This document shows, piece by piece, positions 42,511 through 48,663 of a stretch of 52,407 bases of DNA. The notes below the pieces were generated by a model, which had not been told where the DNA came from, did no database searches, and saw nothing but the letters and a program-made list of their open reading frames with translations. The position numbers and the translations under genes were made by a program. Numbering within the stretch: position 1 is the stretch's first letter; each line of letters starts with the position of its first letter. Source of the stretch: a virus; the UHGV virus genome UHGV-0113213, one strand, 5' to 3'.

Positions 42511-43158
42511 TTATGGCAGGTTTACGATCTTCGCATCAACCACCACGCCTATAATTTTTGATTCTGGATTCATAGGGATTGGCGGATACAGCGGATTGAG
42601 CGAACGTAAAAGCCTTTGACCTCCATCAATAATCAACTGTTTAAACGTCGGTATCTGCCCTTCCTCAAGCTGGGCTATAACCAGTTTGCCGTCAATAGCT
42701 GGCGCGTGCGGGTCCACAAGTATCATCGTCCCCGCCGGGATGCTCAACCCCTGCGGCGCGTTCATTGATTCACCTTTGGCAACCAGCCAGTAACTGTCAT
42801 CTGAACAAATAACGCTAGTCGTAACGTGTCGTAATGCTGAACGCCTTGCGTCATCCATATTGTTTACTGTGTCCTTCCAGTCAATAACCGGGTAACTACC
42901 TAAATCACGCGGCGGCACGGCCTGAAGTGTATTAGAAACAGAATCATCAATGACCATGCCATCATGTGTAACAGTAAACTGCCGACGACCAAGCTCGCGC
43001 ATAATCCGCGCAATATCTTCAAGATTTGGCTCTCGGCGACCGTTCAGCCAGTGTGACAGGCCGCCTTTAGTTATCCCCATACGATCCGCGAGTGAATCCT
43101 GGCTCATGCCCTGCGCCCGCATGAGCTGCTTTGCTAAGTCATACCATTTTGTTTTCAT
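42511..43158 (-). CDS. cI: CI-like repressor (HTH_XRE + S24 LexA-like peptidase)
   Basis: N-terminal HTH (QDSLADRMGITKGGLSHWLNG); C-terminal SMN...G and K dyad consistent with the S24 family. Confidence 0.8.
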   Translation of the reverse strand: MKTKWYDLAKQLMRAQGMSQDSLADRMGITKGGLSHWLNGRREPNLEDIARIMRELGRRQFTVTHDGMVIDDSVSNTLQAVPPRDLGSYPVIDWKDTVNNMDDARRSALRHVTTSVICSDDSYWLVAKGESMNAPQGLSIPAGTMILVDPHAPAIDGKLVIAQLEEGQIPTFKQLIIDGGQRLLRSLNPLYPPIPMNPESKIIGVVVDAKIVNLP

Positions 43159-43463: not shown

Positions 43464-43730
43464 ATGAGTATAAACATGATTAGTAAAGCATGGAACGTAA
43501 AACTTAATAGCCCGATTCAAAAACTTGTCTTAATGGCTCTGGCTGAAAAGGCAGATAACAAAGGACGGGTACATGATGCATCACGCAAAGAAGTAGCCGC
43601 AATGTGTGAACTTCCTGTTCATACGGTACATGATGCCTTCGCCGCGTTAATGGATAAAGGATTTGTTTGTCGTCTTGATGCATTCAGTGATGTCTATGTA
43701 GTGATGTTGCCGGGGGGGGATGATCTATGA
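43464..43730 (+). CDS. winged-HTH protein resembling the N-terminal DNA-binding domain of replication protein O
   Basis: KLVLMALAEKADNKGRVHDASRKEVAAMCELPVHTVHDAF resembles lambda O residues ~50-100. RBS AGGAGAAAATGCG. Confidence 0.45.
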   Translation: MSINMISKAWNVKLNSPIQKLVLMALAEKADNKGRVHDASRKEVAAMCELPVHTVHDAFAALMDKGFVCRLDAFSDVYVVMLPGGDDL

Positions 43731-44773
43731 AGTGGTTTAAGCATGACAGCGATGCGAACCGCGATGAAAAACTTCAAAACGTTTTGTTAGATTATGGCCT
43801 GGAAGGGTACGGGCTTTATTGGTATTGCCTCGAACTAATAACTTATGACGTAGATCAGCACAATCTGAATTTTGACCTACGACATGACGCGAGAATCATT
43901 GCGCGAAACGTCGGATCGACTGAAAAACGTATAGAAGAAATGATGAAATACTTCATCGAAATTGGTTTGTTTGAATGTTCTCAAGGCCACATAACTTGTT
44001 TAAAGTTATTGAAAAGGCTTGATCAATCAATGACTTCTAAAAGCGCGTACAGGGCCGCCATAAACACAGCTAAGGAGCAATTAAAATTAGAAAAGTTAAT
44101 CAATCCAACACAAAAAGGTCATGATAGGGTCATGACCGGGTCAGGAAAGGGTCATGAATTAGAAGTAGAAGAAGAAAGAGAAAAAGATATATACACTTCG
44201 TGTATTGTCGAAAATGAACAAAAAATGTTCAATCGGGATGGCGTAAACGAAGCGGCATTGCGTTGTCTTTCCTTCTACAACGACAAGGCAGGATGCAAAT
44301 GTCGTGATGCGAAGCCATTCATAGAACTACTGACAGAAACAAAAACACGTAAAGCATATACTGAGGAAGAAATCACATTAGTAATCGAGTGGGCTTTAAC
44401 GCAATGGCGTAGCCGTGGTGGAACACCTAAGCCTATCAACATTTGCCGGGTAACTAAATTTGATGGGTATCTGGCTGATGCTGAACAATGGCGCAAACTG
44501 TCAGCCACTGCAAACGCTGCCGATGTGGTGGAAGCATTTAACAGCACGTTTGACGGTCTGTTACCACATGCCGAACTGGATCGGGATCTTGAACGTAAGA
44601 TCTATGCGTTCACTGACTACCTGAAAGACAAAAGCATCACTGGCTTTATTGCTTACTTTGAGGCGTTCAAAAACACGGCTTCAGATTTTTACTTCGGCAA
44701 TGGCTTTACTGCGACACTGGATTTTCTACTTAAACCAAAAACGCTACGTGATACACGATGTGGCGCTCTTTGA
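43727..44773 (+). CDS. replisome organiser / replication initiation protein (Phage_rep_org_N-like)
   Basis: MKWFKHDSDANRDEKL N-terminus; iterons embedded in the linker region. Confidence 0.55.
   Translation: MKWFKHDSDANRDEKLQNVLLDYGLEGYGLYWYCLELITYDVDQHNLNFDLRHDARIIARNVGSTEKRIEEMMKYFIEIGLFECSQGHITCLKLLKRLDQSMTSKSAYRAAINTAKEQLKLEKLINPTQKGHDRVMTGSGKGHELEVEEEREKDIYTSCIVENEQKMFNRDGVNEAALRCLSFYNDKAGCKCRDAKPFIELLTETKTRKAYTEEEITLVIEWALTQWRSRGGTPKPINICRVTKFDGYLADAEQWRKLSATANAADVVEAFNSTFDGLLPHAELDRDLERKIYAFTDYLKDKSITGFIAYFEAFKNTASDFYFGNGFTATLDFLLKPKTLRDTRCGAL
44117..44200. promoter_or_regulatory. candidate replication origin: four GGTCATGA iterons at 11-bp spacing, then an AT/purine-rich tract
   Basis: Iterons at 44117, 44128, 44139 (degenerate) and 44150; followed by agaagtagaagaagaaagagaaaaagatatata. 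Confidence 0.5.
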
Positions 44774-44905: not shown

Positions 44906-45007
44906 ATGGACGGTAAACACGTTTTCGCCCTGGCTTTTGCCATCGCTGCGGCAATCGCTGTTAACGTCGCCTTGTTCGGCGGATTGTATCTGCTAGTTAA
45001 TCCATAA
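44906..45007 (+). CDS. 33 aa hydrophobic peptide MDGKHVFALAFAIAAAIAVNVALFGGLYLLVNP
   Basis: RBS AGAGGA; fills an intergenic gap. Confidence 0.35.
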   Translation: MDGKHVFALAFAIAAAIAVNVALFGGLYLLVNP

Positions 45008-45147: not shown

Positions 45148-46071
45148 ATGCGCAAGTTAACACATGATGAACAGGTTGCGGCTATCGCTAAGGTTAATCA
45201 TGATGTCGAAGTGCTTGGGGAAATTGTCAATAACAGGACAAAAGTATCCTGCCGCTGCAAGGTTTGCAGTCACGAATGGTCGGCTAGACCTTACAATCTT
45301 AAAAGCGGTTACGGCTGCCCGAAATGCGCCGGAAAGATGAAATTATCACACGAAGAACAGGTTGCCGCTATCGAGAAGGTTAATTCTGATGTCGAAGTGA
45401 TTGGCGAAATAATAAACGGCGATACAAAAGCATTATGCCGCTGCAAAGTTTGTAATCACGAATGGTCGGCTAAACCTAACAACCTAAAAAACGGGCGCGG
45501 CTGCCCGAAATGTAAAGGTTTAAAAATCGCACAAAGACGAACATTATCACACGAAGAACATTTATCCGCTATCACTAAGGTAAATCATGATATTGAAGTA
45601 TTGGGAGAAATAATAAACGATAGGACAAAAGTATTATGTCGATGCAAGGTTTGTGATCATAAGTGGTCGCCTAGACCTTATGCTATTAAAAGCGGGCAAG
45701 GCTGCCCGAAATGTGCGAAACACGGTTTTTTGTCACACAATTTCGGCAAACTTTACATCATGGTTGATGATCCTGAAGTGCCTACACAAATGAAAATCGG
45801 CGTAAGCGTTAATGAGAACAAGCGAAGAAATCGGGTATTAAAAAGCGCACATAAATCAGGCGTTAGAATCCCTGATTTATGTGTCGTGAAAACGTTAGAA
45901 GGTCCAACCGAAAATATCCATGAATTAGAAAGCACGATGCATAAATATTTCAGCAATTATAAAATTAACTTTCCTGTAAAATTTGATGGCAGTAATGAGT
46001 TTTTCTATTACAGGCCGGAAGTATTCGACATGGTAGAAGAAGCATATAAAGAGATTGTTTGCTGTCAATGA
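45148..46071 (+). CDS. protein with 3 tandem zinc-ribbon repeats plus C-terminal GIY-YIG/T5orf172-like domain
   Basis: Three copies of CRCKVCxHEWS..P...K.G.GCPKC; C-terminus GKLYIMVDD...MKIGVS. Confidence 0.5.
   Translation: MRKLTHDEQVAAIAKVNHDVEVLGEIVNNRTKVSCRCKVCSHEWSARPYNLKSGYGCPKCAGKMKLSHEEQVAAIEKVNSDVEVIGEIINGDTKALCRCKVCNHEWSAKPNNLKNGRGCPKCKGLKIAQRRTLSHEEHLSAITKVNHDIEVLGEIINDRTKVLCRCKVCDHKWSPRPYAIKSGQGCPKCAKHGFLSHNFGKLYIMVDDPEVPTQMKIGVSVNENKRRNRVLKSAHKSGVRIPDLCVVKTLEGPTENIHELESTMHKYFSNYKINFPVKFDGSNEFFYYRPEVFDMVEEAYKEIVCCQ
45157..45729. repeat. three ~190-200 bp tandem repeats (zinc-ribbon units)
   Basis: Protein-level triplication mirrored in the DNA. Confidence 0.6.
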
Positions 46072-46104
46072 ATATACAAAATGTAAACATGAGGAAATAA
46101 CAAC

Positions 46105-47223
46105 ATGTCACAAAGAAAGATAAGCGATGAGCAATTGATCGCTGAATATAACAACGGTTTAACGTACAAGCAGATCGCTGAAAAATATGGCATGTCAAAA
46201 CGCAACGTCGAGCGCCTGGGCGCAAAGCTGGCGAAACGCGGTTTAATATCCACGCGTCGCGCGCCGGGTTTTGGCGTCAATGGCGAGTCATTGCTAGTTG
46301 ATAAGGATGGCAATGTGATTATGCGCTGGATTAAAACAGCCCGTGATCGCGATGAAATGGAAAGGCTAATGCAAGCGGCTTGCGATGCTTTCACGGAAGA
46401 CATGCCACGCGCTGAGGCTGTGCCAGTGCCGGAAATTGATTTCCAAAAAAGCCTGGCTCTTTATCCGGTATTCGATCTGCATATCGGTGCGCTTGCGCAT
46501 AAAGCTGAATGCGGTGAGAGCTACGACACCGGGATCGCCGAACGTGTGTTAAATGACTTCTTCGACTACGCGGTGGGCGCTGCGCCAATGTCTGAAAAGG
46601 CTGTTTTGTTGTTAGGAGGTGATATTCTTCACACTGACGGCCTGTTACCAGTGACGCCATCAAGCAATCACGTCCTGGATTGCGATTCACGCTACGCAAA
46701 ACTGGTTTACGTGGCGATCCGGTCGGTCCGGCGTGCGGTCGGGAAGATGTTACTAAATCATAAGTATGTCGAGATCCAGACATTATCCGGTAATCACGAC
46801 CAATCAGGGATGATCTGGCTACGTGCGGCGCTGGCGGCTTTTTACGAAGATGAACCGCGCGTAACTGTTGATGTGTCCCCTGCTATCGTTCACCACACAC
46901 AGTACGGCAAAACATTCCTTGCTTACCACCACGGACACACCATCAAAAAACCAGAAAATTTGTTGTCTGCCTGCGTCTCTGACTGGCGGGAGGATTTCGG
47001 CAAGTCGTCGGCGGTTTACGCTCATTGCGGACACTGGCATCACCAACGGCTGATTGAATCATCGTTAGGCGTTGTTGAGTATCACGGCACGTTAGCTGGC
47101 AAAGACGCTTATTCAACAAATGGCGGCTGGCGGTCGCGTCGGCTGGCTGCGGTAATAATTTACAGTCCTGATCATGGGGAAATCGGGCGCTTTGTTTATT
47201 ACCCTGAATATTCCATTTTGTAA
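46105..47223 (+). CDS. HTH plus calcineurin-like metallophosphoesterase fusion protein
   Basis: N-terminal HTH (LTYKQIAEKYGMSKRNVERL). Phosphoesterase motifs DLHIG, GGDILH, GNHD, HHGH, GHWHH. Confidence 0.5.
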   Translation: MSQRKISDEQLIAEYNNGLTYKQIAEKYGMSKRNVERLGAKLAKRGLISTRRAPGFGVNGESLLVDKDGNVIMRWIKTARDRDEMERLMQAACDAFTEDMPRAEAVPVPEIDFQKSLALYPVFDLHIGALAHKAECGESYDTGIAERVLNDFFDYAVGAAPMSEKAVLLLGGDILHTDGLLPVTPSSNHVLDCDSRYAKLVYVAIRSVRRAVGKMLLNHKYVEIQTLSGNHDQSGMIWLRAALAAFYEDEPRVTVDVSPAIVHHTQYGKTFLAYHHGHTIKKPENLLSACVSDWREDFGKSSAVYAHCGHWHHQRLIESSLGVVEYHGTLAGKDAYSTNGGWRSRRLAAVIIYSPDHGEIGRFVYYPEYSIL

Positions 47224-47241: not shown

Positions 47242-48663
47242 ATGATAACCGAACAAGTAAACTCATTGCGGCAAGAAAGAGAATCTGCGGTTATCGGTGG
47301 CCTGCTGTTAGGTGGGCTTACTCCTAACGCGCAAGACGTTCTCGCTACTCTAGATCCTGAAGTATTCACTATTCCGCTATATAAGCGGGCTTTTGAAATT
47401 ATCCGTGCGCAAGCCAGAAACAGAAATCTCATCGACGCGTTACTGGTTGGTGATGAGATTGGTAATGAAAACTTTGTGCCGCTAATGCAAACGGCGCGAT
47501 CGTGCCCTTCTGCTGCCAACCTGAAGGGGTACGCACAGTTACTACGTGAAGAGCACCAACGTCGGCAGATGTTGGAACTCATCGACGATATGCGCTACAA
47601 ACTGGAAACTGGGACACTTGAGGTCGTCAAAGAGACGATGAAAGATTTTGATTCCCGGTATTCAAAATTAAAGGTAACAAAAGATCAGATTATCCCGGTG
47701 CTGTTGCGAGATGCTGTCCAGGAATACACGGAAGTGCTAAGTAAACGCATGGAGTGTGGCGTGAACTCTGACAACATCAAAACAGGGATTGACCCACTCG
47801 ACGAAATGTTAGGCGGCATTAACGCTACTGATATGGTGCTTATCGCCGGACGCCCAGGGTCTGGTAAATCGGCGTTGGCGTTGGCAATTGCCCGCGCGGC
47901 GGCTGAACGCCAATACCCTGGCGGAGAAGGTCAGCGGGTAGGCGTTTTGCTGTTCACGCTTGAAATGTCGCTCGATCAGATGACTGAACGCGCTATCGCT
48001 GGCGCAGGGAACTTGTCAACGGATTGCCTACGTAATCCGGTAAAACTGGATGACGAAGGGTGGGCGCACGTTGCCCAGGGGATGAGCGCACTTGCCGATC
48101 TCGACGTGTGGATTGTTGACGCATCACAGTTAACGGTCGAGGAAATACGCGCCACCACGGAACGGATGAAACAGGACCATCCTAACCTGGGAATGGTAAT
48201 GATTGACTACATCGGGTTAATGAAGCTGGCTAAGGCCGAACGTCATGATCTCGCCGTAGGGCAATTGTCGTGGTCATTGAAAATGATGGCGAAAGAGTTG
48301 CGCGTGCCAGTGGCGGCGCTGGCGCAATTATCCCGCCGCGTTGAAGAACGACCGAACAAGCGCCCTAACAATTCTGATCTGCGTGATTCCGGCAATCTGG
48401 AACAAGACGCAGACAGGATCATCATGGTCTACCGCGACGGCTACTACAACGAACAATCAGTTGCACGCGAGTACATGGAGATCATCGTTTCAAAAAACCG
48501 TCACGGGAAAACGGGTACTGTTTACCAGCGGTTTGATGATAACGGCAACATTTTACCATGCGACCAGGCCCGCGCGGCGTCCGCGTGTATCCAGTCAATG
48601 CAACAACGTCAGGCGACAAGCCGATTCTCCCAGCGAAATAACCAGACAAACTCATCTTTTTAA
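47242..48663 (+). CDS. replicative DNA helicase (DnaB family)
   Basis: Walker A GRPGSGKSALAL, LFTLEMS, DLRDSG..EQDAD. Confidence 0.85.
   Translation: MITEQVNSLRQERESAVIGGLLLGGLTPNAQDVLATLDPEVFTIPLYKRAFEIIRAQARNRNLIDALLVGDEIGNENFVPLMQTARSCPSAANLKGYAQLLREEHQRRQMLELIDDMRYKLETGTLEVVKETMKDFDSRYSKLKVTKDQIIPVLLRDAVQEYTEVLSKRMECGVNSDNIKTGIDPLDEMLGGINATDMVLIAGRPGSGKSALALAIARAAAERQYPGGEGQRVGVLLFTLEMSLDQMTERAIAGAGNLSTDCLRNPVKLDDEGWAHVAQGMSALADLDVWIVDASQLTVEEIRATTERMKQDHPNLGMVMIDYIGLMKLAKAERHDLAVGQLSWSLKMMAKELRVPVAALAQLSRRVEERPNKRPNNSDLRDSGNLEQDADRIIMVYRDGYYNEQSVAREYMEIIVSKNRHGKTGTVYQRFDDNGNILPCDQARAASACIQSMQQRQATSRFSQRNNQTNSSF

Follow-up and report, generated by a model that had tools for sequence, protein, structure and literature searches.

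A helix-turn-helix metallophosphoesterase encoded beside DnaB in an mEp021-like coliphage is a member of the widespread phage family PHROG 704

Background

The virus genome UHGV-0113213 (52,407 nucleotides; hereafter the window, meaning the whole stretch of DNA that was analysed) is a near-complete temperate coliphage or prophage of the mEp021-like (mEpimmI) group. Next to its DnaB-family replicative helicase it encodes a protein in which an N-terminal helix-turn-helix (HTH) domain is joined to a metallophosphoesterase (MPE) domain. Why such an enzyme should be encoded beside a replicative helicase, and what it might do there, is the question that this locus raises. In our analysis the gene belongs, as an unexceptional member, to a known and widespread phage gene family for which we found no experimental study; it is not a substitute for a helicase loader or primase, and little beyond the placement next to DnaB sets this instance apart. 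With regard to function, we propose, with about as much belief as doubt, that the protein is an HTH-tethered binuclear-metal DNA phosphodiesterase acting on phage replication or recombination intermediates.

Catalytic motifs and predicted fold

The ORF (open reading frame) list and its translation give a frame that opens with an ATG and encodes 372 amino acids. The dN/dS ratio of the gene is 0.10 against mEp021 and 0.07 against MagusPhagus, and these low values show that it is under purifying selection. The gene and its parts are located as follows.

46105..47223, plus strand: coding sequence (CDS) of the HTH-metallophosphoesterase, stop codon included (ORF list and translation)
46091..46095, plus strand: Shine-Dalgarno sequence GAGGA, 9 nt 5' of the ATG (read from the sequence)
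46105..46254, plus strand: N-terminal three-helix HTH domain, residues 1-50, isoelectric point (pI) 9.9 (AlphaFold model, Pfam hits below threshold, family-wide HTH hits)
46270..46395, plus strand: beta-hairpin and helix, residues 56-97, with near-invariant G69 and W75 (model and alignment)
46450..47208, plus strand: MPE catalytic domain, residues 116-368
46474..46482, plus strand: MPE motif I, D124-L-H126, in the context FDLHIG (read from the sequence)
46618..46632, plus strand: MPE motif II, G172-D173-I-L-H176 (read from the sequence)
46654..46692, plus strand: family-specific loop T184-P-x-S-x-H-x-L-D-x-D-x-R196, between motifs II and III (homologue alignment)
46789..46800, plus strand: MPE motif III, G229-N230-H231-D232 (read from the sequence)
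46927..46938, plus strand: MPE motif IV, H275-H276-G277-H278 (read from the sequence)
47029..47040, plus strand: MPE motif V, G309-H310-W-H312 (read from the sequence)

Homologues were identified by searching 1.84 billion cluster representatives (50% identity), which returned 4297 hits at E ≤ 0.001, including 923 at E ≤ 1e-30, nearly all of them 370–420 amino acids in length. Conservation was then scored in an alignment of 105 sequences, consisting of the window protein and 104 homologues at 30–58% identity. Nine residues (D124, H126, G172, D173, N230, H231, H276, G309, and H312) are invariant in this alignment, and a further six (H176, G229, D232, G277, H278, and H310) are at least 90% conserved, a degree of motif conservation that is far beyond chance. 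The motif set of the MPE superfamily (DxH, GD, GNH[DE], H, and GHxH, which supply the binuclear metal ligands) is thus complete in the window protein. The original prediction, which was made from the DNA alone, had claimed such a complete set and had named non-conservation of the motif residues as the observation that would count against it; every motif that it listed is present, and the residues are conserved across the family. Within the family-specific loop, T184 is invariant and conservation is 90% or more at L191, D192, D194, and R196, a pattern from which the loop may be suggested to bind substrate. When the 105 sequences were compared with Pfam, PF00149 was matched in 31 (E ≤ 0.1) and PF12850 in 26, and a single relative (P0149) scored above the PF00149 cut-off, at 25.1 bits versus 21.5. 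The family is a divergent branch of the calcineurin-like metallophosphoesterase superfamily.

An AlphaFold2 model built from the same alignment (mean predicted local distance difference test score, pLDDT, 92.9; predicted template modelling score, pTM, 0.78) consists of the HTH domain at residues 1–50, the beta-hairpin and helix at residues 56–97, and an MPE alpha/beta sandwich at approximately residues 116–368. The original prediction had suggested a Foldseek comparison, and when the model was searched in this way, Mre11 and DP1 ranked at the top with E values of about 1e-7; nucleases are the top matches in each of two independent structure searches, and the MPE domain is of the Mre11/SbcD/PolD DP1 structural class. 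The style of the window motifs, DxH[LI]G / GDxxH / GNHD, is likewise that of Mre11/SbcD and unlike that of PPP phosphatases. In the sequence-based comparison of the family profile with the PDB, SbcD/Mre11 reached E values of only 0.4–1.1.

The HTH domain of the model is formed by helices at residues 8–16, 21–28, and 32–44 with pLDDT values of 90–95. Many Pfam HTH models match residues 10–55 of the window protein, each below its own curated cut-off; among family members the best hits are to Sigma70_r4_2 (1.5e-9) and GerE/LuxR (2.4e-8), and the family profile matched GerE in the PDB at E 0.025. The sigma-70-region-4/LuxR-type HTH of the original prediction is therefore borne out as a three-helix HTH in the model, but the specific label is plausible and not established. 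The hairpin element that follows (strands 56–65 and 71–80, helix 82–97) forms the start of the conserved core in most homologues, and it is this hairpin together with the MPE core that is conserved, since the HTH is variable or absent in some homologues. Among enterobacterial phages, the window HTH is 54% identical to that of Rtp61 and also 54% identical to that of wksl3 gp47, whereas the catalytic domain of wksl3 gp47 is only 40% identical to that of the window protein. Such conservation of the HTH would fit a target that enterobacterial phages have in common or that the host provides.

The PHROG 704 family

The window protein matches PHROG 704 ("DNA repair exonuclease") with an E value of 1.6e-138, with its residues 4–368 aligned to positions 2–387 of the 390-position profile. 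PHROG 704 is the T1 gp16 / Rtp61 family, and the window protein is a full-length member that shares with T1 gp16, Rtp61, and wksl3 gp47 its HTH, beta-hairpin/helix, and MPE architecture and its invariant motifs at 39–58% identity. A tblastn search of 50,697 phage records identified relatives in 2044 (~4%), 1959 of which cover at least 80% of the protein, with identities of 54–66% to T1-like phages. The original prediction had considered a DNA-binding phosphoesterase in this position to be atypical, which does not hold for a family of this frequency. Carriers include Drexlerviridae, where the annotation of Rtp61 notes high similarity to T1 gp16, Jerseyvirus (wksl3 gp47), and phages of Vibrio, Ruegeria, Sulfitobacter, Thermus, Campylobacter, and Flavobacterium; numerous phages of Klebsiella, Salmonella, and Vibrio belong here. 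In a structure comparison with BFVD, phages of Lactobacillus, Bacillus, and Cellulophaga joined the carriers. No informative domain fusion was found among the longer homologues.

The names given to relatives in databases are inconsistent (hypothetical protein, phosphoesterase, DNA repair exonuclease, oxidoreductase, Rrf2 regulator, sigma-70 region 4 protein, and DNA polymerase II small subunit) and all stem from automatic annotation; the name of PHROG 704 itself comes from annotation alone. In phage TLS the family member is probably gp66, a "proof-reading exonuclease" that the re-annotation of TLS groups with replication and recombination genes (PMC11447400). A literature search on mEp021 returned nothing about the MPE gene. 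In several phages (such as phiJLA23, JK06, Salmonella phage 36, and Roseobacter phage RDJL Phi 1) the gene is fragmented, with pieces of ~100–310 amino acids, or only partly matched, which suggests disruption or splitting of the gene, possibly through mobile-element insertion, or annotation errors.

Genomic placement in the window and elsewhere

Over 30–52 kb the window is 85–87% identical in DNA sequence to mEp554, mEp010, and mEp021, and its MPE protein is 96.8% identical to the MagusPhagus counterpart. The MPE gene lies in a rightward operon that encodes an HTH initiator fragment, an O-like initiator, the MPE protein, DnaB, a MarR-like protein, and NinB, followed by the integrase. The neighbours that define its position are the following.

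43727..44773, plus strand: replication initiator, Lin1244/DnaD-type, O-like (Pfam Lin1244_N 4.5e-11; PHROG replication-initiation families)
45148..46071, plus strand: optional inserted gene encoding 307 amino acids with three zinc ribbons and T5orf172 (Pfam and PHROG hits)
47242..48663, plus strand: DnaB-family replicative helicase (Pfam DnaB_C 1.8e-75, DnaB 6.2e-12; PHROG 19)

The MPE gene was originally placed between the replisome organiser and the DnaB helicase. It does lie between the two within the replication operon, with the DnaB gene beginning 18 nt past the MPE stop codon, but the zinc-ribbon gene at 45148..46071 intervenes on the initiator side. That position was also said to be one in which a helicase loader or primase is usually found. 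The idea of a loader or primase slot is not supported: no loader or primase model matches the protein, and elsewhere the family is not linked to helicases. In P22-type modules, the initiator adjoins a DnaB-type helicase and no loader is present, so there is no slot to be filled.

Location of the MPE gene inside the replication module is a peculiarity of mEp021-like coliphages. In the T1-like phage Rtp, a helicase/VRR-NUC block and small ORFs are followed by the MPE gene and then by holin and endolysin genes, so that the gene stands ahead of lysis, whereas in the Jersey-like phage wksl3 it is located in an island amid tail genes. The gene lies between lysis genes in Vibrio phage K195, and in Sulfitobacter phage pCB2047-A it follows the lysis genes and closes that rightward block. 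In Ruegeria phage DSS3-P1 and Thermus phage Lalka27a, the MPE gene is followed by genes for a methyltransferase, a deoxynucleoside monophosphate (dNMP) phosphatase, a nucleotidase, and a dNMP kinase. No linkage of the MPE gene to a helicase was found in the T1-like, Jersey-like, Vibrio, Ruegeria, Thermus, and Sulfitobacter phages examined.

When a single genome was scanned for each GTDB species, 67 loci were obtained, mainly from alpha-, beta-, and gamma-Proteobacteria, with a few from metagenome-assembled genomes labelled Bacillota, Gemmatimonadota, Spirochaetaceae, and Solirubrobacterales. ORFs in these prophage loci were taken as the longest ORFs without a gene finder, and the counts are accordingly approximate. 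When 1039 ORFs from the 54 loci of at least 9 kb were clustered by blastp, no cluster of neighbours occurred in more than eight loci. The three nearest same-strand ORFs on either side of the MPE gene were also compared with PHROGs. Upstream neighbours are mostly endolysins, spanins, holins, NinB, and Q-like proteins, and a helicase match (phrog_775) was found among the three upstream genes in only one of 52 prophage loci; downstream neighbours are large terminase subunits, portal proteins, dNMP kinases, and HD-type dNMP phosphatases, and in many proteobacterial prophages the MPE gene is located just upstream of the terminase genes. It is qualitatively clear that the gene is self-contained and usually located at module boundaries, and that it is not linked to helicases.

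Two recurrent arrangements were observed around the gene. MPE homologues repeatedly precede genes for an HD-type dNMP phosphatase (PHROG 318) and/or a dNMP kinase (PHROG 139), as in DSS3-P1 (locus L005, 6967–7476), Lalka27a (locus L006, 5947–7378), and several of the loci L011–L077. This order of MPE and nucleotide-salvage genes is functionally reminiscent of A1-dmp in phage T5, although T5 dmp belongs to an unrelated family (PHROG 415). Genes for HNH proteins of ~167 amino acids are found directly 3' of the MPE gene in mEp021 (locus L008, 6080–6583), wksl3 (locus L003, 7172–7672), and Vibrio K195 (locus L004, 6208–6717); the wksl3 and K195 proteins are 39.5% (E 4e-32) and 34.4% (E 4e-16) identical to the mEp021 copy, respectively. 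In mEp021 the HNH gene is thereby located between the MPE gene and DnaB, and its insertion changes the C-terminal residues of the MPE protein; the window has no HNH gene downstream of its MPE gene. This pattern suggests a homing-endonuclease lineage that targets the MPE gene or travels with it.

Comparison with characterised metallophosphoesterases

The CHARACTERISED phage MPEs T5 A1 and Bxb1 gp47 were compared with the window family by profile-profile alignment (hhalign). Bxb1 gp47, together with L5 gp54 and A10ZJ24 gp48 of cluster A mycobacteriophages, is likewise a phage MPE encoded among replication genes. The structural neighbours of gp47 are Mre11, PolD DP1, and LpxH, as for the window protein; a requirement for phage DNA replication and exonuclease activity are known for gp47 only (PMC11795197). 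A10ZJ24 gp48 is an MPE with phosphodiesterase activity that disrupts host DNA (PMC12287305). Unlike the window protein, gp47 is 255 amino acids long and has neither an HTH nor the hairpin element; it also moonlights as the recombination directionality factor of a serine integrase, whereas the window prophage has an integrase ORF of 396 amino acids (MagusPhagus and mEp021 annotation).

T5 A1 is a predicted metallophosphatase resembling nucleases of double-strand break repair (Mre11) and of proofreading that is both necessary and sufficient for host DNA degradation, and its family is reported to be predominantly associated with Demerecviridae (bioRxiv 10.64898/2026.04.02.716235). A1 works with the DNA-binding protein A2, its gene is near the dNMP phosphatase gene dmp, and it differs from the window protein in being a pre-early product of 556 amino acids from a virulent phage that belongs to PHROG 1745 and not 704. 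Alignment with A1 by hhalign gave a probability of 16.7% over 21 columns around GNHD, alignment with the A1 family gave 23.5% over the HTH only, and T5 A2 does not match the window HTH. Relatives of A1 at 46–48% identity (P0343–P0385) lack the N-terminal 13% of A1 and carry HTH_23, HTH_38, and HTH_7 instead, so a fusion of HTH and MPE arose or persisted in a second phage MPE lineage. Because the profile comparisons with A1 and gp47 are not significant, membership of the window protein in either family was rejected; by this sequence comparison, T5 A1, Bxb1 gp47, and the window family appear as functional analogues from separate families of one superfamily.

The cellular nucleases at the top of the structure searches also differ from the window protein. 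Mre11/SbcD has a capping domain, which the window protein lacks, given that its MPE core extends to residue 368 of 372, and an HTH is present in place of the Mre11 accessory domains; no SbcD/Mre11 model of Pfam or NCBIfam matches it. PolD DP1, the archaeal proofreading 3'-5' exonuclease, has an N-terminal OB-fold domain and is 12–13% identical to the window protein, whose N-terminus is instead the HTH; the hairpin element might conceivably correspond to that OB fold. Among the prophage ORFs scanned with PHROGs, which include large ORFs for tail, tape measure, terminase, portal, and recombination functions elsewhere in the window, neither a Rad50/SbcC partner nor a DP2/polymerase partner was found. 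A role as the exonuclease partner of Erf was also considered and rejected: since Rtp carries exonuclease VIII and Erf and wksl3 carries an exonuclease of its own besides the MPE, the family is not a general SynExo partner. The PHROG scan of the left-operon ORFs gave no exonuclease match beside Erf/SSB.

Proposed function and alternatives

For metal dependence, DNA substrate, cutting polarity, and biological role we infer the following. The seven canonical ligands D124, H126, D173, N230, H276, H310, and H312 would hold two metal ions, probably Mn2+, and H231 would assist catalysis. The enzyme would hydrolyse phosphodiester bonds in DNA, as a 3'-5' exonuclease and/or a single-strand endonuclease, and the basic HTH would keep it on DNA. 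Transcription of the gene would take place from the early rightward operon that also carries the O-like initiator and DnaB, and the protein would most plausibly process phage replication or recombination intermediates, as has been proposed for Bxb1 gp47. In favour of this proposal, the MPE motifs are intact and invariant, the model is confident, the match to PHROG 704 is very strong, and dN/dS is low. The gene is also on the same strand as the initiator, has a strong ribosome-binding site, and is closely followed by DnaB, and the basic HTH is kept at 54% identity over three unrelated enterobacterial phage lineages. Several observations weigh against it. The window protein has no match to Pfam Metallophos (PF00149/PF12850) at E < 0.01, neither it nor the family profile has a significant sequence match among solved structures, and hhalign with gp47 gave a probability of only 6.7% (single sequence) or 4.6% (22-sequence profile), confined to motifs III–V. 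Our literature search found no experimental study of any PHROG 704 member. Furthermore, the gene is outside the replication module in most of the other phages and prophages examined, and a replication-specific role therefore cannot be general. A wider version of the proposal, which we offer tentatively and with more doubt than confidence, is that PHROG 704, including T1 gp16 and the window protein, is a third, independent Mre11/DP1-like phage nuclease lineage that is essential in phage DNA metabolism and that is steered by its HTH to a DNA or protein target specific to the host lineage, as the HTH is more strongly conserved than the catalytic domain among unrelated enterobacterial phages.

Nuclease activity could also be directed at the host, and this is the main rival reading. 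The protein would then degrade the bacterial chromosome, supply nucleotides, and silence host genes or defences, for which there are precedents in host DNA degradation by T5 A1 (bioRxiv 10.64898/2026.04.02.716235), many relatives of which also bear an N-terminal HTH, and in the disruption of host DNA by A10ZJ24 gp48 (PMC12287305). The recurrent dNMP kinase and HD-type dNMP phosphatase neighbours in DSS3-P1, Lalka27a, and several prophages, and the abundance of the family in virulent T1-like and Jersey-like phages, point in the same direction. We nevertheless consider host takeover unlikely, as the window phage is temperate and carries the gene in its early operon, and a nuclease that destroys the chromosome would presumably kill prospective lysogens because it is expressed before the decision between lysis and lysogeny. 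In addition, no kinship to T5 A1 (PHROG 1745) or to gp47/gp48 is detectable in sequence, and the link to nucleotide salvage is found in a minority of loci, where it may reflect a cargo hotspot between lysis and terminase genes. If the substrate were instead a small molecule or nucleotide, such as a cyclic or oligonucleotide immune signal, the HTH would serve regulation or localisation. This is improbable, in that nucleases lead both structure searches, the conserved basic HTH better suits a DNA-bound enzyme, and no precedent for the PHROG 704 family was found in the literature; PADLOC likewise matched no defence or anti-defence family to the MPE protein at E ≤ 0.01, and on this basis a defence or anti-defence component was rejected as a candidate.

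The remaining readings give the leading part to the HTH, to protein substrates, or to the neighbouring helicase. A regulator of transcription or packaging with the MPE domain as an accessory or sensor module would be in keeping with the conserved HTH, with the annotation of relatives by some sources as Rrf2 or sigma-70 region 4 proteins, and with the position just before the terminase genes in many proteobacterial prophages, a frequent site of late regulators; it is nonetheless quite improbable, as the invariant full catalytic set would indicate an active enzyme and not a degenerate sensor, and it is the MPE core and hairpin that are conserved, whereas some homologues have a divergent HTH or none. 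Of the three roles put forward in the original prediction, nuclease fits best, while the other two fare poorly. A Ser/Thr (or Tyr) phosphatase acting on host proteins, akin to the lambda phosphatase (NinI, PHROG 246), would share superfamily, metal-binding motifs, and chemistry with the window protein, and lambdoid phages do encode such enzymes. PPP phosphatases, however, carry the signatures GDxHG / GDxVDRG / GNHE where the window protein has DLHIG / GGDILH / GNHD, no match to PHROG 246 was found, and one prophage encodes both a NinI-like phosphatase and the MPE protein. Fold rank, motifs, and co-occurrence thus led us to reject a lambda-type protein phosphatase, which we regard as barely credible. 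The probability that the protein is a helicase loader or primase analogue that brings DnaB to the origin is equally slight: its DNA-binding domain and its position between initiator and DnaB in mEp021-like phages are compatible with such a role, yet Pfam, PHROGs, and NCBIfam revealed no similarity to lambda P, DnaC/IstB, DciA, G39P, gp59, TOPRIM, or AEP. The replication-module position is not general either, given the single helicase match in the 52 prophage loci, the location near lysis or tail genes in T1-like and Jersey-like phages, and the HNH gene that parts the MPE gene from DnaB in mEp021. The loader or primase analogue was accordingly rejected for want of a domain match and of conserved helicase linkage.

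Other features of the window

The tail, head, and terminase genes of the window are on the minus strand, as is a leftward operon that encodes Erf, SSB, two DNA methyltransferases, NinG, RusA, and a Q-like antiterminator. The layout is unusual in that the genes from Erf to the Q-like antiterminator are left of the repressor, and the replication genes, NinB, and integrase are to its right.

42511..43158: cI/LexA-like repressor
44906..45007, plus strand: 33-codon ORF between the initiator and zinc-ribbon genes

Within the initiator gene, positions 44117–44157 contain overlapping repeats of the GGTCATGA type with 11-bp spacing, in three overlapping 19-nt copies; these look like origin iterons, comparable to the lambda-type origin within O. 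The 33-codon ORF, MDGKHVFALAFAIAAAIAVNVALFGGLYLLVNP, is preceded by the ribosome-binding site AGAGAGGA and would encode a small hydrophobic peptide, probably a membrane peptide. A 102-nt CDS is annotated at a comparable position in MagusPhagus.

The product of the gene at 45148–46071 has three tandem treble-clef zinc-ribbon/CapR-like repeats, which arise from a 173-nt unit present in three copies at 45154–45713, and, at its C-terminus, a GIY-YIG-like T5orf172/MUG113 domain. The protein has a match to PHROG 681 ('endonuclease') and a weak PADLOC hit to PDC-S57 (E 1e-4). Several E. coli prophages that are collinear in other respects, such as 09-00049 with the order initiator, MPE, and DnaB, lack this gene, so it is probably mobile and homing-endonuclease-like.

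Conclusions

PHROG 704 is among the more frequent phage gene families for which no experiments were found, and it includes a protein of the classical phage T1. Other phage MPE lineages are known to matter, namely gp47/gp48 for their parts in replication, the control of excision, and damage to host DNA, and T5 A1 for host DNA degradation, and the PHROG 704 family as a whole is therefore a reasonable experimental target. A functional assignment would correct the guessed labels "DNA repair exonuclease", "DNA polymerase II small subunit", "Rrf2 regulator", and "oxidoreductase", and the function of the HTH-MPE protein could explain a step in replication or in host takeover. If the family does represent a third nuclease lineage, the enzyme would act on replication intermediates or break down host DNA to salvage nucleotides, and a function would be assigned to a gene carried by ~4% of sequenced phages.

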